Positions 7,701-56,905 of a stretch of DNA of 64,000 nt are shown here, in pieces. Numbering within the stretch: the first letter of the stretch is position 1; every line of letters begins with the position of its first letter. The notes below the pieces were generated by a model that was given only the letters and a program-made list of their open reading frames with translations, searched no databases and had not been told where the DNA came from. Position numbers and translations under genes: made by a program. This stretch comes from Nemertoderma westbladi (taxonomy: Eukaryota > Animalia > Xenacoelomorpha): positions 1 through 64,000 of the forward strand of contig JAUCBJ010007162.1 of assembly GCA_032718475.1 (NCBI GenBank), in the 5' to 3' direction.

Positions 7701-8597
7701 CAGCCTCAGCCTCAGCCTCAGCCTCAGCCTCAGCCTCAGCCTCAGCCTCAGCCTCAGCCTCAGCCTCAGCCTCACCCTCAGCCTCAGCCTCAGCCTCAGC
7801 CTCAGCCTCAGCCTCAGCCTCAGCCTCAGCCTCAGCCTCAGCCTCATCCTCAGCCTCAGCCTCATCCTCAGCCTCAGCCTCAGCCTCAGCCTCAGCCTCA
7901 GCCTCAGCCTCAGCCTCAGCCTCAGCCTCAGCCTCAGCCTCAGCCTCAGCCTCAGCCTCAGCCTCAGCCTCAGCCTCAGCCTCAGCCTCAGCCTCAGCCT
8001 CAGCCTCAGCCTCAGCCTCAGCCTCAGCCTCAGCCTCATCCTCAGCCTCAGCCTCATCCTCAGCCTCAGCCTCAGCCTCAGCCTCAGCCTCAGCCTCAGC
8101 CTCAGCCTCAGCCTCAGCCTCAGCCTCAGCCTCAGCCTCAGCCTCAGCCTCAGCCTCAGCCTCAGCCTCAGCCTCAGCCTCAGCCTCAGCCTCAGCCTCA
8201 GCCTCAGCCTCAGCCTCAGCCACAGCCTCAGCCTCAGCCTCAGCCTCAGCCTCAGCCTCAGCCTCAGCCTCAGCCTCAGCCTCATCCTCAGCCTCAGCCT
8301 CAACCTCAGCCTCAGCCTCAGCCTCAGCCTCAGCCTAGGCCTCAGCCTCAGCCTCAGCCTCAGCCACAGCTTCAGCCTCAGCCTCAGCCTCAGCCTCAGC
8401 CTCAGCCTCAGCCTCAGCCTCAGCCTCAGCCTCAGCCTCAGCCTCAGCCTCAACCTCAGCCTTAGCCTCAGCCTCAGCCTCAGCCTCAGCCTAGGCCTCA
8501 GCCTCAGCCTCAGCCTCAGCCACAGCCTCAGCCAAAGCCACAGCCTCAGCCTCAGCCACAGCCACAGCCTCAGCCACAGCCTCAGCCTCAGCCACAG
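4758..8597 (+). repeat. Hexanucleotide array (CAGCCA)n/(CAGCCT)n, ~3.8 kb, ~640 units
   Basis: Directly visible as alternating homogeneous blocks of CAGCCA and CAGCCT. It reads (Gln-Pro)n in the frame that continues into [16 protein letters not shown] of element A gag. Confidence 0.98.
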
Positions 8598-11500
8598 CGC
8601 CTGAGGGAAGACTCTCGAGAAATCATTGATTCTTTATTACAAAGAAATGATTCTCCATTACAAAGAACTGATGACTTAGAGAACAAATGGCATTAATGCA
8701 AGACCATATCACCCTAACAAATAAGAAAGTCGACTCCAAAGCAGCGTCGCAGGATGTGCATATTTTAAAATGCGCCTCTGATGTGAGCGGTATTCATGAC
8801 GAGAATACAGTACATCAGAACGACCGAAGCTCGTATCTAACCAACCTTTTATTAAATTCTTCGGCAGTCGAAACCGACCTCACCAGACATAATATGTCTG
8901 GTGAGGTCGGTTTCGACTGCCGAAGAATTTAATAAAAGGTTGGTTAGATACGAGCTTCGGTCGTTCTGATGTACTGTATTCTCGTCATGAATACCGCTCA
9001 CATCAGAGGCGCACTGTCGGGCTTCGTTTCTAGCCATATTATGGCTAGAAACGAAGCCCGACAGTGCGTCTCCTCAGCTCAAATTTTAAAGTTTGATGGC
9101 AACGAACTGAAATGGCTACCCTTTGCAGAGTTCTGCAAGGACAGTATTCTAGAATCGCCATTGAGTGAACGTGAGAAGCTTAGATATTTATTTAGTTGCC
9201 TGGAAGGACCCCCTAAACAGATGGCTGCAAAATATGTGGGCCATGTAGACGGCATCAACACTGTTTGGGATACTCTAAAGGAGCGGTATGGCAATGAAGA
9301 AAGCTTGGCACGCAACATGTATGACAGATTAATCTCTAAAAATAGATCCACTCAAAACGGGATCGTGGAGTTTAGAGATGAAGTAGAGGAAATTTGTCAC
9401 CAGCTTGATTGGCTAGGACCGAAAAAAGTGTACTATACAATCATGACAGTACAGTTTGTTTTCAGTGCGCTTCCAAAGGGCTCCACTGGGACCAGATGGG
9501 ATCGATACACTTACAATTACAAACTTAAACACAGATGTTTCCCTGATATGGACTCGTTTAGAGGTTTCTTGAAGGCCGAAACCTCCACGTATCTTATCAC
9601 AATGAACCAGGAAAAAAGCACCCATTCAGACACACAGACATTCAAACACTGATAAGACAGCAACCAAGAAGCGATACGCTTATGTTACCAACTATGAAGA
9701 GTGTCCCTGTGATCACTCTGGTTCCGACACAGAGGGATGTGAAAGCATATATTACGGTGAGGTGAACTCCAGAGGTGAAAATAAACACAGTGGCCAAGGC
9801 AAACCAAATAGGAGAACACCTCCTCCCAAGGCCAATAGCACCCCAAGAAAGCATATGAGGATAACCGTAAGGCGACCACGAAGACCTATAATATAATCAC
9901 AGCCGGCACCACCAAACTTAAGTGCCCCCTTTGTAAAATAGACGCACACCCACTTGGGAAATGCAACACCTTCTTAAAAAAGACACTAAAGGAGACGAAA
10001 GAAGGTTTTGGACTTGTCGACATGCTTCTTGTGTCTTAGACCGGAACATTTGCGACGTAAGTGTAGACTAATGAACGTAAAAACGTGTCCGGTGTGTCAG
10101 GGCTCCCATCACCCTTTGCTACACCTAGACCAGACCCCGAAGGAAGAGCTAGACCAACATGTACACTTCACCGATTGTGAGACAGACTCTTCCGATGAAG
10201 GACCGGATGCATTCTACCCTGGAGAGTTTACTGACGACAATGAATGCTGTAACCATGTCAGTGTGTATGAAGCCTTAACCTATGAGGAACCCGCATTGGA
10301 AGATTGTTTCAAATTGGAGAACAATCCCAGCACCCAGTCATTTCAGGATGTCAGAGTCAGAGAGTTTCCGGTTCTCCAAGTCCGGCTCCACATGGGAAGT
10401 AGTAGCGTTGTGGTAAATGCCTTAATGGACACCGGAAGTATGGGCACCTTTATAGACACAGAATTAGCAGAATCCTTGTTCACCAGGGAACAGGGCCACG
10501 CCATGAAATTGACATTATCTGGGATAATGAAATGTTGGCAATCCACAATTGAGACCAAGTATTATAAAGTATCACTGTCCACCCTGCAAGATACCAGTGG
10601 CCGGGACAGGGTCTCTAACATCAAGATGGTCGTCATCCGGAATTTTGCCAAAATTCAGGCTCAGTCCTACGACTGGGATGATGACGCCCTTGTACGTAAT
10701 CATAACATTCCCTGTTTCACCCCAGACTACCCAGGCGTACAGATGTTGATAGGCCAAAATGTACCCGAGGCCTTAGAAGTTCTGGAGAAACGACCCAGAC
10801 ATCCAGAACCAATGTCAGCCTACGCATGTCGGACGAGAGTGGGATGGTTCTGTACCGGGCCTTTCCGGAAAACTCTATTGGAGCAAAAGGGACTGACAAA
10901 TACAGACACCGTTACTTGTAATTTAGTGACCCACCTTTGCAATGAGACCATAGAGACAGAAGAGGACGTCTTGACTACCCCTGACCAAACAGACAGTGAT
11001 AGTGACGCACCCCTGTCCTCTGACCAAGACTGTTCCCTAACTAGGTCCAGTGAACCCGACATTGTACCTCCGATGACTAAGCTAGCATTAGATACATCAC
11101 CCGACTTACGACTGCATCGGACGGCTGATGACCATAGGGATGAATTTTCACCTCTGGTCATAAATAATATCAAATGGGATATTTACATAAACGACAACCC
11201 GATATCAGCCCTGATCGTAACAGAAGCCATCGACATTGTTCAAGGGACAGTAAACTGCCTGAAACTTGGAGGATTTTGCCTAACAAAATTCACGAGTAAT
11301 TCCCGTGAGTTTTTAAAGGCCATACCCCCCGCCGAGCGTGGCGATACCCAACTGGACTTGAGTAAGGACGGTCTACCAGAGACGAAGCCATTAAGTCTTC
11401 GTTGGCTTACAGAAAGTAACATTGTGGTATTTAAAGTGAAATTGAGAAAGGGCGGTACCCAAACCAAACATTGCCTAGGCATACTCAGCGCTTATTTCGA

Positions 11501-11798
11501 CCCCCTAGGATTCAGCAACCCAGTTATATTGTGGGCTCGAGACCTTGTTCCACGTATGTGGAAGGAGAATGATAGTAGAAACATGCGTCAGCGTGGATGG
11601 CCTGGTAAGATCAGAGTAGATCAGAGTAGTACTGAGGGAAAAAGGCAAGCTAAACTTCGTCCCCCAGAGACTCAACCGTCCTATAGGCCGCCTCTGCCTG
11701 CTAGAAATGGCACGCGAAGAATCTGGCAACTACCTCAAGCAGGAAGTCAAGCCGACAGACTTGACATATTTTTTTTTTTTTTATTAGTTTTGGATTGA
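8598..11798 (+). pseudogene. Element A: disrupted BEL/Pao gag-protease-(partial RT) polyprotein
   Basis: BEL/Pao Gag core (ILKFDGNELKWLPF...EKLRYLFSCLEGPP), CCHC knuckles (CFLCLRPEHLRRKC; CPVCQGSHHPLLH) and protease ALMDTGS. Only the RT end follows (YINDN in place of YVDD; GGFCLTKFTSNS; FDPLG). Several frameshifts; no integrase. Confidence 0.9.
8771..9068. repeat. Two abutting perfect inverted repeats (121-bp arms 8771-8891/8893-9013; 29-bp arms 9010-9038/9040-9068)
   Basis: Read directly. The same peptide appears in ORFs 8687..8932(+) and 8852..9037(-). Confidence 0.95.
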
Positions 11799-13150
11799 GT
11801 GCACTGCATATCACACTCAAGCGTGGGAACGGGTTATGTTGCGTCATTAACCACTGACCCCATACGTTTTTAAAAATATGCCATATGATTCAGCTTGACA
11901 GGCTAACATAATTTCTACTTACATCGCTTCCGTCCCCAGATAACAATAGGACTATGGGATGTTTCATGATAAACTGTTTTATACACAGTGCATGAAACTT
12001 GATCTCAGTTCTAGAACATTCTAGAATACTATTAAGAAAAGTGGGATGTTCATGATAAGTCATTATACACACGACGCATGAAACCTGAACCCAACTCTTG
12101 ACAACATGTTGTGATAAGTCATTATTAAACATGACGCGCAGCCAACCAAAACCCTTAATAATTGTATGATGACGGTGATAATACAATTGAATGTGGAATC
12201 CATATCCTTTATTTCGGTTAAACCAAACTCTGGGTAAATTCTGGAAACGGCCCGCCACTTCTTGTATAACCCAAGTACATAAGGGAGTAACAAATAAAAT
12301 TATAATAAACTACACTAGTCATGATAAGTCATTATTAAACATGACGCATAACAATAACAAACCTTGGTCTTGCTGTATTATGACGGCCCAATAACACTTG
12401 AATACAGAGTCTTAATTACTACTCCCGCTTCTTGTCAATCGCCAGAGTAAAGTAAGAGATGTCAATTATTCGTTGGCTTGAAACTTCAAGAACCAACATA
12501 GGTTGATATTGATTAATACAATATCCATTCATATAAATCCGTTCAAGTCACTGTAATAATAAGCATTACGGGAACAGTCACGGTCCACTTAGTGGCTTTA
12601 GAACTTTTTAACAAAGTTCTAGAATTTTATCGTATATTTTTCCTAAAATTAATACCTTTAAATTTATTTAATAAGTATCCATGGAAATTTTAAATATCAT
12701 CATTCGGGAAAAAGTAGGTTTTGTAACGGACATTTGTGCATGTTGTGAAATTGGGTGTGTTAGTTTGTGTGATAGTACAAATAACAGCTATTCTCTGTGT
12801 GTTTACTCTAGCGAACCGAGACCCTATTGCAGACTAATCAGTCGTACTATAACAGTCAATACAACCCCCGGCGGACAGCCGTTGGAGAGACCAGTCTCGA
12901 GCTTCCCCTATGTGTTAGCCGCTTGTCTTCCACCCGTTCTTCCACATCTGTTGGCTTGGGAGTAGACATAGTGGCGCTGACGTGGCCAGGGGCGGCATGG
13001 GTCCTTGTCGGGCTGGGGATGGAGGGCGGCTCAGCATCGCCGGCCCTAAACAAACTCAAGTTATCATAACAATTATATCGACTCATTGGTTTGCTTTGTT
13101 GAATTATTAATATATTTATACATTGTTGATAACAATTATGGATATTTCTA

Positions 13151-14822
13151 ATGACGACTCAATATATAATCTTGATACACAGCGATAACGACTCTCGGAG
13201 GAATATAACCGGAGTAGCAAAAACATTTATGGATAACCGTCGCCTCGTCCACTGGAACTTGGATGTAGCCCTCATTGAAGATGATTTCAGATATGTCGAA
13301 CAAACACAAATATACGTGACACGCCCAGTTATGAATTTATAAGAGTAGTGTGTGGAGAACCCGGTTCATTGGATACTTCATGGACACCAGTAGAACTGAC
13401 CACCGAAGTGGCTAATGCTGAATGGTTACATACAGTAAATGCTATTCACAGCTACGGTGTTATGATCTACGAAAATGAAGGCTCAATACCGGATCCTGAG
13501 CTCGGTTCAACTCGGTTGATTCATATCCGCGGCCTCATTGGAGCCACGCGCGTTTTTACGTGTACTTGTCACGGCACCAACAGCGTTTTCCCAGCCTTGA
13601 CCACCTATCAACGCCGTGCGAGACATCAACAATTTGTTAAAGCGGAGGCTTATGTCAATGACACGCACCGACACCCGGCCACGGGAATAGACGCAGCTTT
13701 ATTGACACAACCCGTACTGGACATTCTCTTAGACGAATCAGTTTATAAGCTCGGTTAAGCCATATATCGAGATTTGACAGACGATTTCCCTATCGCCCAT
13801 GATATACCATATCCCTTTGTTGACACCCAAGTCATCCTTCCTTGGGCGCAACCCCGTGGCTTCTTCCGGGATATGTATCGATGGAACACTAATGATACGT
13901 ATAGCAGAGTTGACCATACATCCTCTTGCCACATTGCGTTTCAAGAGTATGGTTGGACTTGGAACTTTAAGGAAACCGATCGCAAGACGTATTCCAAAGT
14001 TTATGGTGATTCATATTCGCCTTATTACTTTCAAGGACCACTCACCGCCCCTGGCGCTGTATATAGCTTTATGAGTGTCCCCTTGCGCCCCTCGCTAGCA
14101 ATGTACCTCATATTCGAGAACCAAGCATTATTAAGATGGCTTGCAGATGTCTGTAGCTGCGTGCTGAGACGCACCCATTGCTGTTGGGAACCCAACTCGC
14201 CAAACTCGATGAACTTGGTAAATTCCTGAACTTCAAATGCTTTTGGCGTTTCTTAACCCCCTTCGCCAACATTGACAGTCAGTTCCGTGTGAAATCACTG
14301 TCTCAGCAAGAGCTACATCGCTCCGCAGCGGATGAGCTAGCCAGCGGTGGCTTTGCTATATTCCGAGACGTATGTATTTCCAATCTCCATCAATCAGTGA
14401 TCGAGAAACCCATTATCAAACCTGGTTTCTCGGTTGGACAAATACAGACTGACGTTATGGACGCCCCCGACCAATAGGAGGAACCAATCCACCTAGAAGC
14501 GACCTCAGTAGCCGCCTCTGTCATGCTTATCCGATTTGGTGTCGTAATCCAAACCATCGCCTCCGGACCAGTGCAGGCTGCTGTGTGGAAGCGCTTAGCT
14601 GTTCCTCTGGTATTAGAGATCCGTCAACTGGCTGTCGACTCGGGCGCAACGAGACCCATTGAGTTCCTATCCTTGCCTAGTACCTCCACCGGGACATATG
14701 GCAACTGTCCGACTTCACTGACACCAGACACGGTAGATATCCACCCTGGTCCCAACGAGATGCTTTCAAGCAATGACGAGATGTTACCCAGGCCTCAAAT
14801 GCCTGCGAGGAAGAGGAAATGA
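13151..14822 (+). pseudogene. Element A accessory ORF (~550 codons, disrupted), homologous to the element B 650-aa ORF
   Basis: Consecutive ORFs 13151..13342, 13348..13758, 13774..14229, 14178..14477 and 14523..14822 are joined by two in-frame stops and two frameshifts. Motif blocks align with ORF 16249..18201. It ends in basic PARKRK. Confidence 0.7.
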
Positions 14823-14955
14823 CTATTTATGCGAAGTACACCTAATGCATACCAAGCGGAAGCGATAATATAAGATTACTACCAGTTAGCCTGTCAATCT
14901 TTATAAAATCACTGTACTCGTTCGTCAACCGTTAAGTATGTTATAAAACTATCAT

Positions 14956-16222
14956 TGTTCGCGCTTTCGAAGACCTTTAGCAGTTTAACCTGCCAAAATT
15001 TATATGTCTTTTCGTTAATTAAAACCACTTTAGCATACGACAATAATTTATGCTAATACGCAAAACATTAGCCGAAGTCAGCCCATGCGCGATCATTCAC
15101 CCGATGGATCTACACCCGGGAGACTGAATTCGGATGCTTGAATTGTATTATTACAGTGTAAGGTTGCAGTGTATACCTAATGTATTATTCGATAGATCGT
15201 TAATAATTAATCTCTGACAGATATTATTGGCTTTCGGGAAATATTAACAGTTCCTTTAGGACGTGGCGCTTTATCTATTTAAACAGAACTAAGACTTATA
15301 CTAAACGCAACGATACTGCTTATGATTAAAGTATAAAACGTATTCTTTAGGAAATACTTTGTTACCAATCACAATCATACACACTATTCTGCCGACAGTC
15401 AGTACATTTGATCACACATAAAGAGAGCAGTAATTGACTCACGTAGGGTCTGCTAAATAACATTGGATTCAATACACACCACATTAATATAAATCGCAAT
15501 TGTTATATATAGCCGGTCTCTCTAACCTGTAGTGTTATCAAGAAAATTGGGAATTGGGTGATTTATCCGTATTATCCAAATAGCAATATTTCCATCAACA
15601 AATATTTACAATTAATAACTGACGGTAAAATAACAGTACAAACAATATGATTAATGAGTTAGGTTAGATGATTGATTTAAGTCAGATTTGATGAGTATGT
15701 TAATTAAGATTGATCAATTAGGTAACAGTTTATACTTTCGATAATTCAAGCAGTTTACGGTACAGCAGTATCTATCCAAAAATGCCGGTGTTTCTGGCTT
15801 AGACAGCAATAACAACAAAGTAACAAGAAAAAACAGTAAGACTGAACACTCTCCTTATGATCGGCAGAAAAGCTACACGTCGACAGGAAAAACCGCCCTG
15901 ATTGGCCCAAGCCAAACAAAGAACCACGCGTCCAATGGCTGTTTCCATGTCAGCAACCAGCTGCTAGATGTCGTAATATGAATCATCACGGCTAAGCTGT
16001 GAAAGGTGGTTGGTGCATTACAAGTTTTTTTGTCTTACCATGTCCGCTAAAACACGTATATAGCAGAATGATTTTTATGTCCGTTAAAACACCTGTAAAG
16101 GTACCTTGCGGGCGAGGGGAATATATATACAGTTAGAAAACCCTTTTTAGAGTATTCCAGCGCCTGGGGGGGAACTGGCCAGCATAGGCAAACGTATCAG
16201 TTATCCCACAAAAGCTTTTACA
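14956..16222 (-). repeat. Element B 3' LTR
   Basis: Direct repeat of 26700-27966; plus strand reads TGTTCGCG...TTTTACA. Confidence 0.97.
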
Positions 16223-16248
16223 CCGCTCCCAGAAAATGGGATTTAAGT

Positions 16249-18201
16249 CTATAAAATATACAAAATCACAGTTTCTAAAATATAAAAATACTCTAAACAG
16301 TTAGTCTTTCTTGCGCGGACGGCGTTTACGCAGTTTTTTAAAGCTAGCAAGAGTCCTTTTCTCTTTGGGGCGAGCCACTTTACGAGGAGGGCTATAACTC
16401 CTGGGTGAAGGGTGCAATATGATTGCATCAGAAGGTATGGGATTGCGATCTGTATATCCGGTTTTACCATATAATATTGAGTCAGATTAACATAATAAGA
16501 GTGATCTTTAATTCCATAAAAAGAGTTCTGTAAAGGTCTAGCGCGTATGTTGACCTCGTGTACCATACGACGGACAAGATCCGCTCGATTGTCCGGAGGT
16601 TCAACGAGTATACCGTCAACTCGAGCGGCCTCGATTGGCGGACGCTGTAACATAGGAGCGTCAGCGATAAGATTTTGCGATCTTATGCTGATATCAACCG
16701 GTTGGGGTTGTATCTTTGCGAAAAGTTTATCTCCGAAATGCGGAACCATCGAGGGATGACGGACGGTTTTAGAGTAGAGATCGGTTATGAGTATCTGAGT
16801 TTCGGGTTGGGCTAAAGCGGCTTCTTCCCTCTCATCCATTTCCGTATGCCTCTCCTCCAGTTGATTCTCCTCCGCTTGTTTCTGCAAGCGTTCTTCCAGA
16901 AACTCCTGTAGAGAATACGTACGTCCAAGCTCGATGTCCTCTTCGAGGTTTTGGATTTCTCTATCAAACTGCGGCAAGGCTAGCTCTTTTACCGATTGGA
17001 CCTGCTGCTGTAATTTACGTTTCTCTAGAAAATCCTGGGTTCCCTTTCCGATTTTCTGTCGGATGGCGTCTAGAGCGTTTCTAATGACACTCTCCTCGAC
17101 TTCCGTGGCAGGTTGTATCGGCGTTAATCCTGGCCGGTTGTAAGGATTAAAAGGCGAGGTTAGATGTCCGCGTCCCAATCCGGTTAAATAGGATGGTCGA
17201 ATATCTAACGAACCTACCGCCGGAGCACCACCGATTAGCTGCTCGGGTAACACCAAATCCTTGAACAGTGAGTATAATTCGGGAGGATCTGTGATACTGT
17301 TAGGATCAAGAGTTTGAGGTCTCACGGGGAAATGGGGAGGTCTGACCGAGTATTCCGGAACTCTGATCATGGGTTTATTTAGCGATCGTTTTAAACGGGC
17401 GATCGCAGGGGATACGTCGAACAGGTTTCGCTCGAAACTCCCGTAAGTATAACGCGTAAAACTGTGTTTAGCACAACGTCTCCGCGGATGTTTATGTCTT
17501 TCCGTTTGCTGGTTAGGTCTAGGACATGAGTCACAATAATACCAAAGACGTACGTCCTGCAGAGGAAACGCGGGTGATCGTTCTCCAGTTTTGCAATACT
17601 CTTCCATTTGTTCAAAACTGTCCGGGACAACAGGTAGTGGACGATCTGCGGTAAGATACATCATGGTGAAATAGAGTCGTTTGAGTTCTACCATGGGATC
17701 GTGATGGATACCTTGAGGATATCGAGTCTCTAAGTTCTGTTGACTGGCAATATTGAGATAGGTTTCCCGCAAAAATTCCACGTAGTCGTTGAAGTTGATA
17801 CGCTTATCGGGTTCTTCAACGTTTTCTCTGTCGAGTAGGTTGCGGATAGAGTTCTCGTGTTCTATTCTCAGTTTATCATTACGATTCCTCTGAGTATGAT
17901 ATTGGAATAAAACCATTTCTCTTTCGGTTTCTACATCATCGGTATCATGTAAATCGGTAGGATGACCGGTAGTTAAGAAGTCCATATACGTACCATTACG
18001 ATTCGTATAGCGAGCGGTGAATTTTCTATAGTCCGCTTCGCGCGTAAGTTGTTCCTGGGACATCGGCGGTTCGATATAACGACCATCGTCCTCCGTAATA
18101 GTCGGATCAGCTTCACAGCGTATCAAGCTATCCACAAACGCTTGTAAAGGTAGAGTATATCGTTCTCTAATACCAAGGTCATCTTCGATCAATTCCGTCA
18201 T
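16249..18201 (-). CDS. Element B accessory protein (650 aa, unknown function) in the env position
   Basis: Uninterrupted 1953-bp ORF on the gag strand, ending 26 bp before the 3' LTR. No signal peptide or clear TM segment seen. It has a Cys/His cluster (CDSC...HKH...CAKH), a Pro-rich middle and a Glu/Gln-rich coiled-coil-like stretch. Confidence 0.85.
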   Translation of the reverse strand: MTELIEDDLGIRERYTLPLQAFVDSLIRCEADPTITEDDGRYIEPPMSQEQLTREADYRKFTARYTNRNGTYMDFLTTGHPTDLHDTDDVETEREMVLFQYHTQRNRNDKLRIEHENSIRNLLDRENVEEPDKRINFNDYVEFLRETYLNIASQQNLETRYPQGIHHDPMVELKRLYFTMMYLTADRPLPVVPDSFEQMEEYCKTGERSPAFPLQDVRLWYYCDSCPRPNQQTERHKHPRRRCAKHSFTRYTYGSFERNLFDVSPAIARLKRSLNKPMIRVPEYSVRPPHFPVRPQTLDPNSITDPPELYSLFKDLVLPEQLIGGAPAVGSLDIRPSYLTGLGRGHLTSPFNPYNRPGLTPIQPATEVEESVIRNALDAIRQKIGKGTQDFLEKRKLQQQVQSVKELALPQFDREIQNLEEDIELGRTYSLQEFLEERLQKQAEENQLEERHTEMDEREEAALAQPETQILITDLYSKTVRHPSMVPHFGDKLFAKIQPQPVDISIRSQNLIADAPMLQRPPIEAARVDGILVEPPDNRADLVRRMVHEVNIRARPLQNSFYGIKDHSYYVNLTQYYMVKPDIQIAIPYLLMQSYCTLHPGVIALLVKWLAPKRKGLLLALKNCVNAVRARKTNCLEYFYILETVILYIL

Positions 18202-19661
18202 ATCCGCTATCTGAGTTTATTAATATCAATATAAGTTAATATTTTAGGCAAGCGGGCGTCGCTTCCTACTATGCTTTTTGCCCCCGGACAGTGGGTTTCT
18301 CAGCGCCGATGTACCGCTGTCGCAGTGTTTACGCCAACATGTAGCACAGCACGACAACGATAACCGGCACAAGTCCCACCACTGTCCGTCCCAAAGGCTT
18401 GAATCCACTTGAGGTTATCTCGGTAGAGTTAGGGCTATTTTACAATTGCGATTAGCTACTGTAAACACACTTTAGTAGTAACATTCACCTATAAACGCAC
18501 AAATTCCATACAATCATTACTTACTGCACACATGCATACCATTTGTCCGTTAGTCAGTGTCTTCCAGAATGTCACGTTATTACTATGTATCCTTGGATAC
18601 TAATAGTGCGCTATGTATACTCTTATGCTACGCAATGGGGCAAGCTTTTTATTGTTCTTTTAACTTGCTTCTAATTCTAGCGTGGGTGTTGCCATGGTGA
18701 CATTATGGAAAACTAGCGGTAGAATTAGGGCAATCCTCATGCATACAGATCTGGGATGTTATTTAATAGTAATTCTTTAATTGTCAATATCCTCTTTATG
18801 CATGATTTTATAAATTTTATCGGCTATTGACTATATGTTGGAGATTCTCACACTCTAGCACACTCAATATGAATCTCCGCTCCCATGATCTATTAATTAC
18901 TGGAATTTTGGGAATGTTATAAATTGCACAAAATGACAATTTATGAAATTCATTCGAATATGAATTTAAATTTATTCCCGTGAATTTTATTATTTGATAT
19001 TAAATTGACATAAATTTTATTCCAGAGCATATCTGGGAACTCAGGATCCTTAATTCTGTAAAAGTTGTCTTTTAAGAATATCGGTAGGTGCCACGATATC
19101 TTAATCGACTAGAATTACAGATGGTCAAAAGTTTAACAGATTTATTTGCGATTTACGCTACTGTTAGAGGGACATCACGCTACTATATGTATTATTTGTT
19201 ATAAGGTAGAAGAGCAATATCGCACGAAGCAATGTCAGTGTGAAGAGGCAAGTCGTTTCCAAGGTCTACCCAGAGCTTGGTTTAGCCGAGACACGAGGAT
19301 CTGAACTTTGCATTCCTAATACTCTGCCTATCAATAATACTTAAATATAGTAGTGGCTTTATTGTACTTTAAGAAGTACGGACATTTCATCTTACTATAG
19401 TCTCGCATTTATAATATAATACGGACAGTAAGGAAAGAGAAAATAATTACTTCTTGCCGTCGCACTAAATATATATTATAAGTAATTATGTACGTAATAA
19501 ACACTAATATATTGCACTAATTTACTAAATATTCTAAACTAACATTCTACTAAATAAAATTAAAGAAAACGATTATAATAAAATTACATAATAATACATA
19601 CATAAATATAAAATAAAAACAAATATAAAATGATATAGTCACACGCCCACTCCATATGTTA

Positions 19662-22600
19662 TTACGTTATGGAGTCCCTAGATATTTGTCGGATTAGGGA
19701 AGTGGTCGTAGGAAGAGTATCTTGCCTTCCATAGTTTCCGGACAGTTTTCGGTCTCTTTCCAGTAAACATAAACGACTAGCTGGGCGATTGAGTGGTTGT
19801 GTTAGTTTCTCCGCTCCCTTGGCCTGTCTACTCTCCGCCGTGGTAAGATGAGGAGGCCATTCTTCTTCTTCTTTACTTAAGAAGTCGGATCCACCTAACC
19901 AGCCTGGAGTATCTATCAGTTCTTGAGGAGTTGCTCCTCTGGAAGCGATGTCGGCTGGATTAATCGTCCCAAGGCAATGTCTCCATTGATCTACATTGGA
20001 GTTAATATCGTCATTATCTGAGGAGTATGGTGTTCCCTCAGTTGGGTCGTCCACATCACTGCTCTCCACTTCCCCCTTTACTTGGTATACCTGTTGTTGA
20101 GGTAATCTCTCTTTGAGAGTTCTACGGGAAGGGCCAGTGAAGTACCAACCTACTCTAGTTCTTACCGCATAGGTTTGTAGTGGCTGTGGTTGAGCAGGCC
20201 GTTTCTCTAATGGCTCGAGCGCCTCATGCGCGTTTTGGCCGATGAGGATTTGCACTCCAGGATAATCGGTTTGGAATCGAGGTATCTCAAGATGTTGGAT
20301 GCTCTCGTCCTCGTCCCAGTTATAAGGTGCTACTTGGGTAGTAGCGAAGTTCTTTATTGCTACCATTTTTACTGACCTTATACTTTGTTCTCCTAATTTA
20401 TCCTGTGGGGTGGACAACGCACCTATATAGTAATCTGCCGTTAGGGTAGATTTCCAAACCTGTATAATTCCTGACATATTCAATTTAGTCCGGAACTTGG
20501 GTTGTCCAGCAAAGATATCTTCGGCTAGTTCTTGATCGATGAATGTTCCTGTGCTGCCGGAGTCAAGTAGGGCGTTCACTATGTAACTCTTGTTGAGACC
20601 ATGAACTCTCACTTGCACTACAGGAAATTCTCTTATTCCTATGTTGGAAGTTGGAACTTTCCAAGATGGTTGTTTGTCAAAAGGAGTTGGAGTAAACTCG
20701 TCAGTGTCCTTTTCATCCGTAAGTGCTCGATACACTGTGGTATTTATTAGATAACAGGATTCGTTGGCATCGGAGAATTCGTCTGTATAGAATCCTTCCC
20801 ACTCAGAACCTTGGTCAGTGTCGTTCACATCACTGAATTGGACATGTAGTTCGGGCTCACTTACCTGACTCGGGTTGTCTCGTTCGAACTCACTGTGTAA
20901 CAAGATGTGATGTTTCGCGCCACACTTTGCACACTTTACGTCGGAGTAACAGGTTCGCCGTTGGTGTCCTGATCTGAGGCAATTATAGCATAACCGCTTA
21001 TTCCACAGGACTGTACGTCTGTCTACAGGGGATTTCTTTAGAAATTCAGCACACGCACTCAAACGGTGGGGCCTGTCGCACAGCGCACATTTTGGTTTGA
21101 TGTTACTCACCTTAACTTGGTTAACGTTATGCACTCTCGTTCTTTCTTCGGGCTTTCTTCCGTGAATTCTCTTAGGAGACGTAGGAGGAGTTGTTGTTAC
21201 CTGTTCTCTCCTGTCACTGGTTCGAGACTTGTATTTACTTACGTCTTTATAGGTCTTGTTGTCATAGTAAGATTTTGCTGTGTCTTTCCCGCTGTCCTCT
21301 TCTTGAGAAGCTTGGCTCTCGCCGTCGTCAGTATAACACACTGGTATTATCCTTCTCCTAGAATCGGGTTTCTCACTTACCTTATTTTCCGATGTTTTCT
21401 CTCTGGCCTGCCTTATGAGTTGTAATTTTACTTCACTATCTAAGAAAGACATGAGATCAGCCATGGTAGGACTTCGTCGTTGTTGTTCATTCATGTACAA
21501 CACTTTCTTGTCCCAGCGTGTACATACTCCACCCTTTGGTAAAGTAGAGACTACGGCTCCAATAACCATGGAACTCTGGTATTCGTGCGACTTACCTAAC
21601 CAGTCCAGTTGTCTACAGATCTCTTGTATTTCATCGGAAAATTCTATAATCCCACTACTAAGGAAGTGTCGGGGGGCTACTAACTTTGTATACAAATACT
21701 TAGCTATGTTATCCTTGTTACCATACCTGATGTTTAATGTATCCCAAACTTGTCTTAATCCATCTGGATGTCCAATAAACTTTAACGCCATTAACTTGGG
21801 AGGTCCTTCCAAGCACTTGATGAGGAATCTAAGTTTCTCTCCGTTAGATAGTACAGAGTTCTGTATGCTATCTTTGTAATATTCGTTGAAAGGTAACCAT
21901 TTCATCTCATCTCCATTGAATTTGATGATCTCTCCCACTTTGACCGCTTGGCGGGCTTCGGTTCTAGCCATCTGACGCGTAAAGCTTTCTTGGGCCATCG
22001 TGTTATTTAATATCGAATTATCGGTATACAAATTTCTCGGATCATTATCAGGTCTATAGGGAATATCATTAATAACAGGTCTATAATCACCCTTAATAGG
22101 GTTTGCTATAGGAGTTTCAACTTCACTAGCAGTATATATGCGTGTAGGCTCCACACCTTGCGCATGTGATACTTCAGACCTAACGGGTTGACTCAATGTT
22201 ACCAGGGGCATTGGTATGCCTTTTTGTATATTGACTAATTTGTCGCGTTCTAGCGCGATACTTTGCTGCACTTCTTGCAACTCTGCTCTACTTTCCCTCA
22301 CCGTTCCCTTAAGTTGGTGGACAGTCTCCTGCATCTGTCCTAGCAGAAGATTCATCCCCCGCCGTCCCTCTTCCACCCACTCAACCGCTGAAGCGGGAGT
22401 CGCCAACATAGTAGCGGGCTGACGCGGGACGACGGGAGACAAATTATTGATTTCTCTCTCTGCTATCTGGACAGGGGTGTTTGCATGGGCTGTTCCACCG
22501 GGTACAGGCAGTGTAGTGCTATGTAAAGGGAATTTAGAGTTAAGCTCTGGAAGTGTAGGGGTCTCTAGCACAGAAGTGACTTTGGGAATTACAGGCCTAA

Positions 22601-24332
22601 TTATTTCAGGTTCATCGACTATAGTAGGGAGTCTTTTGACCTGGATAAATTGTTCTATAGGTTCTGCCCTACCTAAATCTGTGCTAGTTAGCTGTCTTTT
22701 AACAGCTGGGGGCAAATCAGGCAATTTACGACGGTAATATGTTTTTCTACGCCTACTTAGATGAGATCTATCTCCTCCGCCTTCAGGGTCTGTAGTATCG
22801 CCTTCCTCCGATGATGTGTACCCTTGGCGCTTGGGAGTAGATTTTCTCATCATCTGCATCTGATTAGCAGTATACTGTTTATTTATACTGTCTTGTGTCT
22901 CTTGCAGATTTTCCAACTCCAGTTGGGTAGTCTGCTCAGATGCTCTCCTTTCTACTTCTGCCACTGCCTTCGCTGCCTTTCTTTCGGCTTCTGCTTCTTT
23001 TCTTTTGGCTTCTGCTTCTTTTCTTTCTGCTTCTGCTTCCGCTGCTCTTGCCTTTCTTTCGGCTTCTGCTTCCTTTCTTTCGGCTTCTGCATCCTTTCTT
23101 TCGGCTTCTGCATCTGCCATAACCGCCGCCATATCCGCCGCCTTTTGTTCCTCTATCCTTCTTTTCTTTATTTGTTCTTCTCGGACTCTAGTGAGGCGGA
23201 GTTTTTCATCACATTCAGCTTGGTTTGCAGCTAACATTTCGGCATCGATTGAGTCTAACACAAGCTTGGTTCCTTCACTATTAGGGGAAAGTCCATGTAG
23301 CCGTCTCCTCAACTCTTCGTCTCCTAGGAATCGCTGATAGTCTGACAAATAAATGTCGATAGCGTCTCTAGTTCGCGGTTTCTCGGCGGCCTCTTCGCTT
23401 TCCTCTTGAGCAAGGGTGACATCAGTTTGTTCGGAGACATCAGTCGGTTCCTCATAGATTGATCTCTCAGCCAGCTGGGATTTCCACGGGGCTGTTTCCT
23501 GTACTTTGAGATCTACTCGATGTAGCCAAGTTTTGACAGCAACCTGCAGCGACGTGTCCTGTCTTCTTTTGGAAGTTTCCTCAAAGGCTGAGAGGATTAG
23601 TCGAATGCGTAGGGTTCTTTCGCGTATTTGATATAGCAGTTCTTCCTGCTCTTGAGGTCCGTGAGGTTGTCGAAACAGTTGTTCCTCCAATCGCTCCAAG
23701 GATCCGAAGAATCCCTGCACATATCCTGCTGCCGACCTCTTCCAAACAGCTGGATCCATTGTATCTTTTGCCACTCCCATCCTGTGTATATCTTCCCAAG
23801 TAGCCTCGGACATATCAAACGGAAGTCCGAGTCCGGGAAAGTTCCATTGTGATTCAACAATAGATCTCAATTCTTCCCTGGCGTATCCCGCGTAATTATC
23901 TTGGGTCGATTGCTTATTCTTCGTCCAGTCGGTTTGATGTTCTTCCACCGCAATGAGTATAGTAGTCAGCACTGCAGCAGGAAGAGTAAGAAGGGGGTCC
24001 GAGTAGACTGTATCAGCCATCTGCACTCCATGTTCGGGAGTCAACTCTACAGTGTCCGAACTGCTGGAGCTATCAGGTCTCTGGGAAGTAGGTTCTTGAC
24101 CAAGATGTTGCTGCGATAGGACAGCTGCCTCTTGGTCCCGTTTTACCTGTGCCTGAGTGCCTATGATGGACCTATGGTGGACTAGCCTAGGGTCTGATAC
24201 TACTGGAGGGATGACCTTTTTTACAGTAGGAGGTGAGCCGAACTTCTCTATTATTCGCTCCACTCTCCTATCTGAATCACAGATAGTGGTCTCGATCAGA
24301 CTGTCCGACAGGTTTTGCTGAGTGTCAGACAT
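19662..24332 (-). CDS. gag: Element B Gag-aspartic protease polyprotein (1556 aa), lacking RT, most of RNase H, and integrase
   Basis: Coiled coil with AEAERKE repeats, BEL/Pao Gag core (IIKFNGDEMKWLPF...EKLRFLIKCLEGPP), three knuckles (CALCDRPHRLSAC, CYNCLRSGHQRRTC, CAKCGAKHHILLH) and protease ALLDSGS. It then goes straight to the BEL RNase H-end signature WRHCLGTINPADIASRG...WP. Confidence 0.95.
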   Translation of the reverse strand: MSDTQQNLSDSLIETTICDSDRRVERIIEKFGSPPTVKKVIPPVVSDPRLVHHRSIIGTQAQVKRDQEAAVLSQQHLGQEPTSQRPDSSSSSDTVELTPEHGVQMADTVYSDPLLTLPAAVLTTILIAVEEHQTDWTKNKQSTQDNYAGYAREELRSIVESQWNFPGLGLPFDMSEATWEDIHRMGVAKDTMDPAVWKRSAAGYVQGFFGSLERLEEQLFRQPHGPQEQEELLYQIRERTLRIRLILSAFEETSKRRQDTSLQVAVKTWLHRVDLKVQETAPWKSQLAERSIYEEPTDVSEQTDVTLAQEESEEAAEKPRTRDAIDIYLSDYQRFLGDEELRRRLHGLSPNSEGTKLVLDSIDAEMLAANQAECDEKLRLTRVREEQIKKRRIEEQKAADMAAVMADAEAERKDAEAERKEAEAERKARAAEAEAERKEAEAKRKEAEAERKAAKAVAEVERRASEQTTQLELENLQETQDSINKQYTANQMQMMRKSTPKRQGYTSSEEGDTTDPEGGGDRSHLSRRRKTYYRRKLPDLPPAVKRQLTSTDLGRAEPIEQFIQVKRLPTIVDEPEIIRPVIPKVTSVLETPTLPELNSKFPLHSTTLPVPGGTAHANTPVQIAEREINNLSPVVPRQPATMLATPASAVEWVEEGRRGMNLLLGQMQETVHQLKGTVRESRAELQEVQQSIALERDKLVNIQKGIPMPLVTLSQPVRSEVSHAQGVEPTRIYTASEVETPIANPIKGDYRPVINDIPYRPDNDPRNLYTDNSILNNTMAQESFTRQMARTEARQAVKVGEIIKFNGDEMKWLPFNEYYKDSIQNSVLSNGEKLRFLIKCLEGPPKLMALKFIGHPDGLRQVWDTLNIRYGNKDNIAKYLYTKLVAPRHFLSSGIIEFSDEIQEICRQLDWLGKSHEYQSSMVIGAVVSTLPKGGVCTRWDKKVLYMNEQQRRSPTMADLMSFLDSEVKLQLIRQAREKTSENKVSEKPDSRRRIIPVCYTDDGESQASQEEDSGKDTAKSYYDNKTYKDVSKYKSRTSDRREQVTTTPPTSPKRIHGRKPEERTRVHNVNQVKVSNIKPKCALCDRPHRLSACAEFLKKSPVDRRTVLWNKRLCYNCLRSGHQRRTCYSDVKCAKCGAKHHILLHSEFERDNPSQVSEPELHVQFSDVNDTDQGSEWEGFYTDEFSDANESCYLINTTVYRALTDEKDTDEFTPTPFDKQPSWKVPTSNIGIREFPVVQVRVHGLNKSYIVNALLDSGSTGTFIDQELAEDIFAGQPKFRTKLNMSGIIQVWKSTLTADYYIGALSTPQDKLGEQSIRSVKMVAIKNFATTQVAPYNWDEDESIQHLEIPRFQTDYPGVQILIGQNAHEALEPLEKRPAQPQPLQTYAVRTRVGWYFTGPSRRTLKERLPQQQVYQVKGEVESSDVDDPTEGTPYSSDNDDINSNVDQWRHCLGTINPADIASRGATPQELIDTPGWLGGSDFLSKEEEEWPPHLTTAESRQAKGAEKLTQPLNRPASRLCLLERDRKLSGNYGRQDTLPTTTSLIRQISRDSIT

Positions 24333-25691
24333 GTTTAGTTATACAGTTGAATGTCTACTACTATAGTTTCAGTTAAAGCAAGTCTAGTAATTCAGTATGA
24401 CCGCAAGCCTAGCGATTTATTACCGGTACCGTTACTCAGTGGAACGTGATATATATACAATATATTAGAATACCGGTATGCTTATAATATATAAGTATTA
24501 TTACAGACTAGATTTGTCACAGAGTACCGGTATATAATTTTAGCACAAATATATATATATATAGTAGGCCTATAATGAATACCGGTATACAGCTTACACT
24601 TATAGTATATAAGTATAATTCTGGACTAGAATTAATTACAGAGTACCGGTATGATTTCAGCTCAAATTTATAGAAATAAATATAATAAGCCTATGGTAAG
24701 TACCGGTATGTCAATTATTTTTAGAATAATTGAATTTCTGAATATTTTGGGGTTACTTCGTTACTTTAACTTACTTTATTACCGTTATTTAAGCAGTAGT
24801 CCAACTGACAGTGAGACCTAGTCGTTGTATGGCAGGCCTACTGTTTATAAATCGTTTGAGTTGATTTATAATAGATATATACCCGTTTAAAAGGGTTTTT
24901 GACAATGTTTGAAATAAATGTTATTATTTCTGGGGAAGTCACTACACAGAAGCTGAACGCTTCTCAGTGAAGTGCTATTTATTTGACACTAAAACTGATA
25001 ATTCTAATTTACCTAAGTTACTTAATACTACGAATTACTTACGATACGGGTGAGATTAATTCTCTAATTAAACACAACAAAATATTACGTACGAAATTTT
25101 TAGGGTAATTTTACAGGAAGTCTACAAACCAGTCCAACAAAGGGTTAGATTTCTGGCTATTACAAAGGACAGAGTACTACGGTGTTTAAATAATAAGTAG
25201 TAGTAAATATATTGTACTGTCCAGATAGGAAAATACCACCGCCTGACGACCTATAACCGTATCGCTATAGGTACTACGTTATGTATCACGGATTGTTCCT
25301 ATCCAGAAGTTAATAGAGCTAACGAATGTGCCTATCAACCACTTTACAATACAAAAATACTGCCTACACTAATTACTTCGGAAGGCACTGTACTCTAAAC
25401 CCTAAATTAGGTACAAGTACCGGTATAACAAATAATCAGTAGTTAAATATACTTGAACAGTTAAAAGAACCACGGCATCTGCTGGAGTGACCGAAGCACA
25501 AAGTCGTCAGTCTTTACCTACGCCAAGCAGCCCTGATGTAGTACCGGGGTTAGTTTAACTATAACGGTATGTATAACAAGCACAATTACTGTAGGAATAA
25601 ACTTGGGGACATGAATGTTGCGAATAATCGCATAAACTCTGAATAATAAATATTACGCTACCCGTACAGAATACTCAAACAAATACAAACC

Positions 25692-26213
25692 AAACGCTGG
25701 CAGACTACTATCAAGCCTAAACAAACTACTGTATGTGCAGATTCTGAAACTGTTAGTTAGTATGCGTGCTAACACGGTAGTACGACTTACTCTTTAAGAG
25801 GGGATTGACCTTACAGTGTTGACTGCCCCAACTTACTAACGGCACTTGATCAGACCAACTCTACACACGCAGCAATCCCTTCAGACCTAAAAATAGCTAG
25901 ACAACAATCCAGCCTACAAATATTTGAGTAATAACTATTACGGTACCTGAACAGACCACACAAACAAACACAGGCCAAAACACTGGCAGACTACGATCAA
26001 GCCTAAATAAACTACGGTATATGCAGACTCTGAAACTGTTAGTTAGTATGCGTGCTAACACGGTAGTACGACTTACTCTTTAAGAGGGGATTGACCTTAC
26101 AGTGTTGACTGCCCCAACTTACTAACGGCACTTTATCAGACAAACTCTACACACGCCGTAATCTCTCCAAACCCAACCACAGTCAGACAGCAGCTCAGCC
26201 TACAATTATCTGA
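25692..26213. repeat. ~286-bp-period direct duplication in the element B leader
   Basis: Block CTGGCAGACTAC...CAGCCTACAA is present twice, with a near-identical core. Confidence 0.9.
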
Positions 26214-26495: not shown

Positions 26496-26699
26496 TGTAA
26501 ACCGTTACTGTTCTCCAGAACAGTATTAAACTGTATTTAATGCTTACACTTGCAACCTTATTGCCTACTGCAATAAGATTAATTATAAACTGTTACTGTT
26601 CGACAGAACAGTTAATAATTGATATAAACTGTTACTGTTCGTCAGAACAGTATTAAACTGTAGTTAATGCTTACACTGCAATACAATATAAACTGTTAC
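26496..26699 (-). promoter_or_regulatory. Element B PBS-position region: four copies of GAACA-GTAACAGTTTATA plus short hairpins; no TGG-type tRNA PBS
   Basis: 13-mer at 26687-26699, 26623-26635 and 26584-26596, with a variant at 26496-26508. Its complement lies in the LTRs at 27466-27478 and 15722-15734. Confidence 0.8.
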
Positions 26700-27966
26700 T
26701 GTTCGCGCTTTCGAAGACCTTTAGCAGTTTAACCTGCCAAAATTTATATGTCTTTTCGTTAATTAAAACCACTTTAGCATACGACAATAATTTATGCTAA
26801 TACGCAAAACATTAGCCGAAGTCAGCCCATGCGCGATCATTCACCCGATGGATCTACACCTGGGAGACTGAATTCGGATGCTTGAATTGTATTATTACAG
26901 TGTAAGGTTGCAGTGTATACCTAATGTATTATTCGATAGATCGTTAATAATTAATCTCTGACAGATATTATTGGCTTTCGGGAAATATTAACAGTTCCTT
27001 TAGGACGTGGCGCTTTATCTATTTAAACAGAACTAAGACTTATACTAAACGCAACGATACTGCTTATGATTAAAGTATAAAACGTATTCTTTAGGAAATA
27101 CTTTGTTACCAATCACAATCATACACACTATTCTGCCGACAGTCAGTACATTTGATCACACATAAAGAGAGCAGTAATTGACTCACGTAGGGTCTGCTAA
27201 ATAACATTGGATTCAATACACACCACATTAATATAAATCGCAATTGTTATATATAGCCGGTCTCTCTAACCTGTAGTGTTATCAAGAAAATTGGGAATTG
27301 GGTGATTTATCCGTATTATCCAAATAGCAATATTTCCATCAACAAATATTTACAATTAATAACTGACGGTAAAATAACAGTACAAACAATATGATTAATG
27401 AGTTAGGTTAGATGATTGATTTAAGTCAGATTTGATGAGTATGTTAATTAAGATTGATCAATTAGGTAACAGTTTATACTTTCGATAATTCAAGCAGTTT
27501 ACGGTACAGCAGTATCTATCCAAAAATGCCGGTGTTTCTGGCTTAGACAGCAATAACAACAAAGTAACAAGAAAAAACAGTAAGACTGAACACTCTCCTT
27601 ATGATCGGCAGAAAAGCTACACGTCGACAGGAAAAACCGCCCTGATTGGCCCAAGCCAAACAAAGAACCATGCGTCCAATGGCTGTTTCCATGTCAGCAA
27701 CCAGCTGCTAGATGTCGTAATATGAATCATCACGGCTAAGCTGTGAAAGGTGGTTGGTGCATTACAAGTTTTTTTGTCTTACCATGTCCGCTAAAACACG
27801 TATATAGCAGAATGATTTTTATGTCCGTTAAAACACCTGTAAAGGTACCTTGCGGGCGAGGGGAATATATATACAGTTAGAAAACCCTTTTTAGAGTATT
27901 CCAGCGCCTGGGGGGGAACTGGCCAGCATAGGCAAACGTATCAGTTATCCCACAAAAGCTTTTACA
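26700..27966 (-). repeat. Element B 5' LTR
   Basis: Direct repeat of 14956-16222; contains a minus-strand GCCAATCAG (CCAAT box) near 27642-27650. Confidence 0.97.
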
Positions 27967-28806
27967 ATCATATTTGTAAATAACGAGCAATGTGTATTTC
28001 TTATTATGAGAGTGAAATTCGATATATTAGTCGAATTTGTGTATTTTATATTTGAAGGATAATATGACTCAATATTTACCTACTTACATCGATTAATTTA
28101 CCTACCTACCATATTTGTAAATATATTAAACTCTAATATTGTTTGAAAGGTCGTTTAATACTTATTTAGTCTTACCAGAAGTGACTCAACAAACTTTATT
28201 ACTTTATATGAGGAAGTTGATCTACCCTTAATTAATTTCGTTTAATTTTAGTTAGAATGTTTAACGCATTTAATTGTATGTAGCGAGTATTTGATATCGA
28301 AGTCACCTTTGATTGTTGAAAGATTGTATATACTCTTTTCCATGCAACTTTCCGAAAAAACTCAATATTGTGTTACTCATAGAACGATTGTTGAACTTGT
28401 ACGTAATTTTAGGGAACGATTTTGCTGCACACACTAACTGCATATCGAAATCTTATATTTTTATCAGAGAATCATTCAATTTCAGTGCGTATGATAATTA
28501 TGCCTAACTCATGTTGTATACCACCGTGAACCTTGTTTTTATATGTTGCCTAGCAGCAGTTGTGGTAGTGCCGAACTCTCATTGGTAACTACCGGTGCAG
28601 GTATTCTTGCGTCCTGTTGGCCATTCTATTTTTGCTGTATCGCTTGTTTATATAGTCGATGTTCATCCCATTACTCTCAGGCATAACCTAACATCATATT
28701 AGCCTGTTGCGAGTCATGTAACTTGCAGGACTCATGATATTTCACCTTGCTGCATGCATTTTAACATCTTGCTGTATTACATTATTAAATATTATTGCTT
28801 TACTAT

Positions 28807-40994: not shown

Positions 40995-41930
40995 TATTTT
41001 ATTGAAATTATATTTCTTTACTTAGTTTGACTTAGTTATTTAAAATTGGTTCACTTTAATGTTTCTCTAATTTAAATTTAAAATTAAATTTAAATTATAT
41101 TCCGTGGTATCTAAAATGTATAAAATTAACACTGCAATTGGCAACCTGTAGAACAAATGAATACCTACAGTAAATAAAGGAAAAATAACCTGTAGTATTA
41201 AAATATAATTAACTTATAAATCGAGATGACACCAAGGTAGTAGTCATCAAACCAAACCAGTCTAGATTTGGCTCTATGGGGCGCTATACGCGGATATTTA
41301 AAACTATGGATCACTATTTATACGTTACTTATTAGCTTCAGTGGTGCCTTCACTAATATGTTAAGTGATATAAATCAAATTATAACCTAAAAAAAATAGA
41401 AATAAATTATAATACGAGGTTCAAACCTGACCCCGGTCCCAAAATACACCTGGTTTGTAATGGAGACACTTTACAAACCAGGGGTGAACGTAGAAGTACC
41501 TTCTCACCCTCCGGCGTCGCGTGGCGATAAATCTTCTTGCAAACTCAAACCTGGCCCAAGAGAGAGTCCCTGCCCTACCAAGTCATCGGTCCCCGAGACC
41601 GATTCATGTTCAAATAGAGCCCACCGACAAAGAAGGAAAAGGTAAGACTAAACGTTGAGAGTCAGGAAAGCATAGAAAAATATAACCTACAGTTGTAATA
41701 ATTGCACCACAATTAAAACAGAAAGTTATACTTATCGTTAGTTTTCCTTCGCCTCCGATAGAAGATGAGAGTTTGAAAACTTGAGAGTTTGAGAACTTGA
41801 GAAACTTGAGAACCTTATGAACTTCAGAGAATTTGGAGACTTTTGAGAGCGTGCGACACTTGAGAATTTGTTAACTTCAGAGAACTTTGAAAACTTAGAG
41901 AACTTCAGATTGTGAGAAACTTGAGAACTG

Positions 41931-42015
41931 TTAAATTCACTGTTCCAGTAGCCCATTAAATTCACTGTTCCAGTAGACCATTAAATTCACTGTTCCAGTA
42001 GACCATTAAATTCAC
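41931..42015 (-). promoter_or_regulatory. Element C PBS-position region: 25-bp tandem repeat carrying ACA-GTGAATTTAATGG
   Basis: 13-mer at 42003-42015, 41978-41990 and 41953-41965, partial at 41931-41940. Its complement lies in the LTRs at 42143-42155 and 32156-32168. Confidence 0.8.
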
Positions 42016-42480
42016 TGTATGCTATACCGGGCATAATCCGGGGTCTTTTCCCCTAATTTGGAATCTTATCCAACGGAGCGTTGCAAATAACTTGAGTTTA
42101 TAAAAGGACAGTATAATAATAATATATAACTTGAAACAGCTCGTGAATTTAATGGCTCCTTAGGGGAGACCATTAGTTTTAGTAACAAAGTAATAAAACT
42201 GCACAACTTCTATCTATGAATAAAACCAATGAATGTTTAATATATATGAAGTATTATGCTACCAATATTAGCCCAGTAAGAATACTTAATCCCCAATATC
42301 CAATAGGAGGTCGTTTCCTTGTCCCCAGCTTACATTAATGGTTGATGCACCAGTACTGCCTGGTAGAAGGGGATAATTGGTGTTTCAAAACAGCTGATGA
42401 GTAGGTAACAATACAGATTGGGTTTGGCATTTTCCTATAGGGGTTAGATGAATTGAATGTATTTTATGGAACCGAATACA
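42016..42480 (-). repeat. Element C 5' LTR
   Basis: Direct repeat of 32019-32492. Confidence 0.95.
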
Positions 42481-53423: not shown

Positions 53424-53429
53424 AATGTA

Positions 53430-56835: not shown

Positions 56836-56905
56836 AAATTAATTTTAAAGTTTGATTGAATTTCTATTTTGCTATTTGCATTCGAAACGAAAGAGCAAAG
56901 TAACA

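Follow-up and report, generated by a model that had tools for sequence, protein, structure and literature searches.

Element B, an LTR retrotransposon on the minus strand of a 64,000-nucleotide stretch of Nemertoderma westbladi DNA (hereafter the window), carries directly beside its 5' LTR a 13-nt sequence complementary to a segment of its own LTR. As judged from the sequences compared, this complementarity is real, lies well beyond chance and is part of a broad pattern. We consider it very likely that B self-primes in some form, and our analysis favors one version as the probable one, in which B primes minus-strand DNA with its own LTR segment, in cis and cut by reverse transcriptase (RT), and not with a tRNA.

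Results

Architecture of element B

The two LTRs of B are two substitutions apart. The DUF1759 domain in its Gag reaches a Pfam E-value of 3.5e-12, and its aspartic protease is recognizable by an LLDSGS motif, with a Pfam score under the cut-off. The best protein matches of this Gag-protease bear a Pao peptidase, and the C-terminal end of the long ORF is a 50-aa remnant of the region that follows Pao RNase H, aligning at 46% with residues 1462-1511 of a full-length BEL/Pao protein (P0004). Domain and protein comparison of the ORF translations detected no RT, RNase H core or integrase in B; the second ORF, which is found in contigs from all four runs described below, has no Pfam or Atlas match. 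Judged by these domains, B is a BEL/Pao-derived, non-autonomous LTR retrotransposon, and since it lacks RT and integrase it could be moved only by the enzymes of a partner. A preliminary description of this DNA held that B had replicated recently. The near-identity of the LTRs and the intact target site duplication (TSD) agree with this, and B is a young element; lacking RT and integrase, a deficit overlooked in that description, it cannot have replicated by itself.

Family B is very abundant. Its contigs number 98,015 (run X1), 24,674, 1,175 and 704 in four runs from four studies, and together they span all 30 bins of the element. Neither protein collection contained a close relative of the Gag-protease, the best match among 1.84 billion representative proteins having 28% identity (E 2e-34). 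In the 2.4-kb leader, a 288-bp tandem duplication, 87% identical, occupies positions 25640-26213, and the contigs listed include some with one unit more or one fewer.

Table 1. Positions of elements B and C and their parts in the window
Feature	Position	Strand	Remarks
Element B	27966-14956	-	13,011 bp (13.0 kb); LTR pair and TSD
TSD of B	27967..27971	-	ATGAT, 5 bp; partner 14955-14951
5' LTR of B	26700..27966	-	1267 nt, TG..CA; PPT-LTR joint also present in contigs
Candidate donor-like site in LTR of B	27777..27791	-	GGACATG/GTAAGA (at 27782); GGAC context as before LTR introns of several relatives
LTR segment of B, predicted self-primer	27466..27478	-	TATAAACTGTTAC; LTR position 489-501
Predicted primer-binding site of B	26687..26699	-	GTAACAGTTTATA; flush with 5' LTR
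Extra copy 2 of B	26623..26651	-	exact 13-mer 26635-26623; ACTGTTC-N4-GAACAGT hairpin burying CA/G
Extra copy 3 of B	26584..26612	-	exact 13-mer 26596-26584; with hairpin
Extra copy 4 of B	26496..26524	-	13-mer 26508-26496, 2 mismatches; with hairpin
Long ORF of B	19662..24332	-	ATG 24332; Gag and aspartic protease; DUF1759, three Cys-His zinc-knuckle motifs
Second ORF of B	16249..18216	-	655 codons stop to stop
Polypurine tract (PPT) of B	16223..16230	-	GGGAGCGG; joint with LTR also in contigs
3' LTR of B	14956..16222	-	1267 nt; contains 13-mer at 15734-15722
5' LTR of C	42016..42480	-	465 nt
LTR segment of C	42143..42155	-	CCATTAAATTCAC; complementary to own flush site
Flush site and 25-nt tandem repeats of C	41929..42015	-	site GTGAATTTAATGG, 42015-42003; two more exact copies, one partial
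3' LTR of C	32492-32019	-	TSD of C CTAAC, 5 bp

Complementarity between B and its own LTR

The 5' LTR of B ends in GCGCGAACA, and GTAACAGTTTATA begins at 26699 with zero gap; no TGG occurs in the first 8 nt past the LTR. The exact complement of GTAACAGTTTATA is present in both LTRs, 766 nt upstream of the LTR end (Table 1). Watson-Crick matching starts at offset 0 from the LTR edge, cannot be continued into the LTR and comprises 13 pairs; a G-U and an A-U pair lengthen the flush duplex to 15 bp, with a predicted energy of -18.0 kcal/mol including flanks. Across the ~10,450 internal positions of B, no 13-nt sequences other than the flush copy and exact copies 2 and 3 are complementary to the LTR. 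Of 20,000 trials with Markov-resampled LTRs, 3 produced a flush 13-mer and 10 produced one at offsets 0-5. The earlier account had described a 13-mer complementary to its own LTR in place of a tRNA-type site, with identity stopping after base 13, and had seen the LTR-end junction recur three times downstream, twice exactly and once as a variant; all of this holds at every coordinate, hairpins included, each extra copy being preceded by ACTGTTC-N4-GAACA.

Within the family, three contig variants swap the sequence directly 3' of the LTR 13-mer, several lack ~108 nt of the downstream repeats while retaining a copy at the junction with the LTR end, and the flush site is changed in a few contigs of low depth. 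No compensatory change between the two 13-mers was seen in these contigs. Neither 13-mer varies at the 40 variant sites listed of 90, but as 40 sites would miss them by chance at about even odds, we do not count this as evidence.

The same layout in element C

A second element of the window, C, has its site at offset 0 from the 5' LTR and an exact 13-mer complement in its own LTR (Table 1), an arrangement that resampling yielded in 0 of 20,000 trials. The LTR sequences of B and C have nothing in common and their 13-mers differ, yet the layout is the same. The Gag-like ORFs of C are without a domain match, no BEL/Pao domain was detected in its protein and no pol was found; its first ORF has no Pfam or Atlas match and no significant match to the ORF of B. 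The PPTs of both elements look like those of distant BEL/Pao relatives. The Gag-like ORFs of C continue into a CCTGAC/TCTGAC microsatellite of 4.5 kb. At 43102-43089 (minus strand), 620 nt upstream of C, the initial 14 nt of the B LTR reappear and may mark where an older, related LTR began before C interrupted it. This candidate outer LTR gave no flush complement.

Own-LTR pairing across BEL/Pao loci

To fetch distant BEL/Pao loci from metagenome contigs we used an alignment of four full-length protein matches, and we analyzed the best 80 of 524 loci; no relatives were found among viral contigs. At 10 of these 80 loci both LTR copies independently set the right end of the LTR, and with L007 dropped as a duplicate of L006, nine remained. 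TGG is absent from the 8 nt that follow the LTR at all nine of these distant autonomous loci, and at eight of them 11-15 nt pair with the locus's own LTR, spanning a GT[AG]..YAG intron of 78-305 nt. In L048, the ninth, the 3' LTR copy examined shows TG where the AG acceptor should be; a pairing of 11 nt is seen in its sister L051. When the nine loci from the best 80 of 524 were combined with B and C in a matrix, the own-LTR score was 11-15 in 10 of 11 elements, and the cross pairs reached a maximum of 11, in 3 of 110. With offsets 0-6 left free, the paired site starts with GT in seven of the eight relatives and with AGT in one; B and C do likewise. Covariation of the post-LTR and LTR-internal 13-mers had been put forward as the check on the self-priming proposal, and C and eight of the nine relatives do pair with their own LTRs in different letters.

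A wider scan, in which a GT start was required, covered 67 of the best 80 of 524 loci, the other 13 having no upstream DNA; because GT was required, primer ends in AC are there by construction. An own-LTR match was obtained at 37 of the 67 loci, compared with 1, 1 and 2 of 67 in three deranged controls. With L067 grouped with L062, these 37 represent 25 families whose RT identity falls as low as 46%; 18 families have the intron form and 7 the contiguous form only. The remaining 30 loci of the 67 lack a strict match and are mostly short of LTR sequence, with a few one-mismatch candidates; none has a tRNA-type site at a fixed LTR end. In the comparisons that follow, the 25 families from the best 80 of 524 loci make up 26 rows, L054 and L065 both being listed. 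Extra primer-site copies are present in both B and C but in 0 of these 26 rows, and the distance from primer to site is 766 nt in B, versus 69-251 nt in relatives from the same 80 loci where it was measurable.

The claim that the lineage self-primes thus gains partial support from the covariation of C and the relatives and from the 37 of 67 matches against 1-2 of 67 in controls (best 80 of 524 loci). The Gag-protease of B forms a long branch (3.47) outside all loci sampled from the best 80 of 524, so any shared ancestry of the trait with these relatives is presumed.

Spliced and contiguous complements

For most relatives (18 of 25 families, best 80 of 524 loci), the complement is the exon-exon junction of an intron within the LTR. 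In L003 the 5' LTR piece (1-214) lacks exactly the 117-nt intron of its 3' LTR (6760-7265), with 213 of 214 columns identical, a difference that may reflect an assembly mix of two copies. In L065 both LTRs lack exactly the 168-nt GT..AG intron of the family-mate L054. The exon-exon junction in these intron-less LTRs is the complement of the primer site, which suggests that splicing of the LTR intron is real, at least at times. One whole sub-clade of the relatives (best 80 of 524 loci) is contiguous.

The complement is contiguous in the LTRs of B and C, neither of which has the intron-split form. Candidate donor-like sites are present in the LTR of B (Table 1) and in C at 42333, and we infer that the contiguous state of both arose by intron loss. 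A spliced primer for B was tried and rejected, the best match being contiguous and the AG ahead of it lacking a pyrimidine tract. Also rejected was the post-LTR GT as a splice donor: the sites of the relatives share GT without the donor consensus. Among the joints listed for contigs of run X5, which is putatively RNA, there was no splice joint, and positions 27439-27489 were uncovered.

Other features of the window

Element A (~4690-14950, plus strand), a broken gag-pro-RT remnant of BEL/Pao type, was the insertion target of B. A candidate LTR end of A at 4690, GAACA followed by GTAACGTTCGAAT, is partly repeated and adjoins a LINE fragment; it was set aside, having no partner LTR and no complement. 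A includes a 3.9-kb hexamer microsatellite (4726-8600) and a broken stretch near 13140-14900 that by eye resembles the second ORF of B. Its gag contains a perfect 121-nt inverted repeat with a 1-nt spacer (8771-9013), either a fold-back duplication or an assembly artefact, and a nested 67-nt palindrome at 9006-9072. Elsewhere lie two 5'-truncated copies of one LINE reverse-transcriptase stretch (569-1780 and 3256-4710, minus strand) and nested imperfect inverted repeats resembling MITEs (52800-55450 and 48590-48890). Exons read by eye at ~56900-64000 (plus strand) belong to what we take to be a POU class IV homeobox gene, one intron of which holds a long 28-bp minisatellite.

Discussion

How B may prime

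In the mechanism that we favor, the 13-base LTR segment of B would lie in the transcribed R region, a placement drawn from Tf1/Tf2, and would anneal to the site flush with the LTR. Because B encodes neither RT nor integrase, the machinery for priming has to be provided in trans; RT/RNase H from an autonomous relative would cut directly 3' of the duplex (after ..AC), as in Tf1, strong-stop synthesis would begin at the LTR edge, and the remainder of R would be used for strand transfer. A position in R fits the relatives, of which 23 of 26 rows carry AATAAA or ATTAAA farther downstream than the primer end and none carries either within the duplex (best 80 of 524 loci), a pattern that does not fit poly(A) masking. 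The contiguous segment of B may have arisen by reverse copying of a spliced RNA into DNA. The additional copies downstream would be tandem duplications of the junction between LTR end and primer site. As the initiation end of these extra copies in B is predicted to be buried in hairpins, they may tether the primer or act as decoys, and would not initiate.

Predicted folds differ between the two elements. Local folding of B in a 40-nt window leaves the flush CA/GT mostly open, less so in 100 nt, and buries CA/GT in the extra copies. When the leader was folded from the 13-mer through the repeats, however, the 13-mer had a pairing probability of 0.0 with the flush copy and of 0.05, 0.28 and 0.31 with copies 2-4, and the addition of at least 20 nt upstream brought it to ~0 for all copies. 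The modeled whole-leader fold of B therefore does not support cis pairing with the flush copy, while the C leader gives a pairing probability of 0.31-0.79 with its own; fold predictions beyond 1 kb are weak, and chaperoning by Gag could alter them. The 766-nt loop and the poor intramolecular fold of B could instead be explained if self-priming occurred in trans, with the primer being a separate short LTR transcript (from a poly(A) site in the 5' LTR, a solo LTR or a co-packaged second RNA) trimmed to ..AC. LTR transcripts could be plentiful in so abundant a family (98,015 contigs in run X1), and the persistence of intron-bearing LTRs in the relatives suggests that an unspliced template is needed beside the spliced primer. 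C, on the other hand, folds well in cis, and the precedent of Tf1/Tf2 is in cis (PMC5341516); we regard a trans primer as unlikely.

The duplex might also be regulatory, hiding a poly(A)-like hexamer in the 5' LTR (TATAAA in B, ATTAAA in C) while priming occurs by other means. Such a hexamer does lie inside the duplex of both elements, AATAAA and ATTAAA are wholly absent from the LTR of B, and in local folds the anti-hexamer end is predicted to be left free in extra copies 2 and 4. The relatives nevertheless have the hexamer within the duplex in 0 of 26 rows and a separate downstream signal in 23 (best 80 of 524 loci), so masking, which the preliminary description had offered as its alternative, does not serve as a general explanation. 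In addition, the pairing edge falls within 0-5 nt of the LTR end, the position required of a primer terminus, an alternative primer site is lacking, and the masking strand of B is transcribed 766 nt later. We think it improbable that masking replaces priming; given the hexamers in the B and C duplexes and the lack of a canonical one in B, it may be a second role in these two elements.

Alternatively, the duplex could form and DNA start, without a cut, from the 2'-OH of the conserved ..AC. Branch priming from a 2'-OH is the mode of retrons, and we know of no LTR element that uses it. The duplex ends in AC in B, in C and in the offset-free relatives, which would suit a sequence-specific start, but cleavage specificity or an initiation preference of RT accounts for AC equally well, and branch priming seems to us highly improbable. 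Least credible of all is a host tRNA half as primer: TATAAA-CT-GTT-AC does resemble part of an AT-rich tRNA-Asn(GUU), namely its 5' arm and loop after a cut within the anticodon loop, with the CT-GTT-AC pattern visible in B, and half-tRNA primers exist in copia lineages according to excerpts of PMC6317226, but this would leave the exact LTR copy in B, element C and the relatives unexplained, the segments of the relatives (best 80 of 524 loci) have no common anticodon pattern, there is no tRNA-like sequence in the window or the LTRs, and Rfam and ARAGORN found no piece of tRNA, 5S or snRNA in the LTRs.

If cis self-priming by a cut LTR segment is correct, a broad lineage in animals uses its own RNA as primer, self-priming extends to a third LTR superfamily, and the current description of Belpaoviridae, with host tRNA priming, stands in contrast to it. 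Such elements would be beyond the reach of control through tRNA supply or tRNA fragments, and annotation tools that depend on a tRNA site would overlook or mis-orient them. A splice-junction primer in the relatives would be a manner of primer making for which we found no description; the exactly intron-less LTR copies would be DNA-level proof that the junction forms, with the proviso that L003 may be an assembly mix. More tentatively, and as a possibility to which we give somewhat less than an even chance, a large aquatic Sinbad-like branch of BEL/Pao may have given up tRNA priming and made its primer by splicing an LTR intron, host splicing acting as a switch for reverse transcription; B and C would be intron-lost descendants whose hairpin-buried tandem decoy copies provide control. 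As B is non-autonomous and its family very abundant, ample native RNA and cDNA should exist in which to map the primer directly.

Relation to known elements

No published description of BEL/Pao self-priming or of a splice-made primer was found in a literature search conducted mostly at title and abstract level, with subscription papers and Repbase reports thinly covered. BEL/Pao self-priming is not shown in the accessible portions of PMC554778, PMC3118150 (with supplementary files S4 and S6), PMC3601003, PMC8220671 and PMC6934838, and the words PBS and tRNA are absent from the main texts of PMC3118150 (de la Chaux and Wagner 2011) and the Sinbad paper (PMC554778). The RT motif by which the relatives were retrieved is present in all four Sinbad-labelled families inspected in PMC3118150, but a Sinbad assignment resting on this 10-residue motif is a lead and not a placement, and B has no RT to place.

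The ICTV profile of Belpaoviridae gives an 18-nt site for host tRNA-Arg or -Gly (PMC8742986), and Achilles, in the relevant excerpt of PMC4580426, has a tRNA-Tyr site. B shares with this family its LTRs, PPT, DUF1759 and zinc-knuckle Gag, protease, Pao RNase H remnant and 5-bp TSD, but it lacks a TGG site, RT and integrase; since there is no TGG within the first 8 nt, we file it as BEL/Pao-derived and not as a typical semotivirus.

Self-priming has been reported for the Tf1/sushi and Tcn1 groups and for the TAR lineage of copia, as summarized in excerpts of PMC6317226. For the TAR lineage of plant Ty1/copia (Houba, Osr-1) it was predicted there from sequence complementarity alone, as it is for B; TAR differs in being copia and in plants, and those excerpts mention neither an LTR intron nor a repeated site. 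The closest parallel in layout is with Tf1/Tf2 (Schizosaccharomyces pombe), Tj1 (S. japonicus) and the Tf1/sushi and Tcn1 groups of Ty3/gypsy, which have no tRNA site and in which Tf1-type RT is described, in sections of PMC4600332 and PMC5341516, as freeing the self-primer by cutting. There, as in B, the sequence adjoining the 5' LTR is the complement of a short stretch within the LTR of the same element; across B, C and the relatives the two covary. B differs from Tf1/sushi in its BEL/Pao Gag, protease and RNase H remnant, with BEL/Pao domains only and no Ty3/gypsy chromovirus proteins. It also differs from Tf1 in that its segment lies 766 nt from the site, with a placement at the RNA 5' end that is only predicted, in having four copies of the site, and in that an LTR intron splits the segment in its relatives. 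On present sequence evidence, then, B departs from Belpaoviridae in the tRNA feature and is no Tf1/sushi element, yet it appears to work in the manner of Tf1 self-priming.
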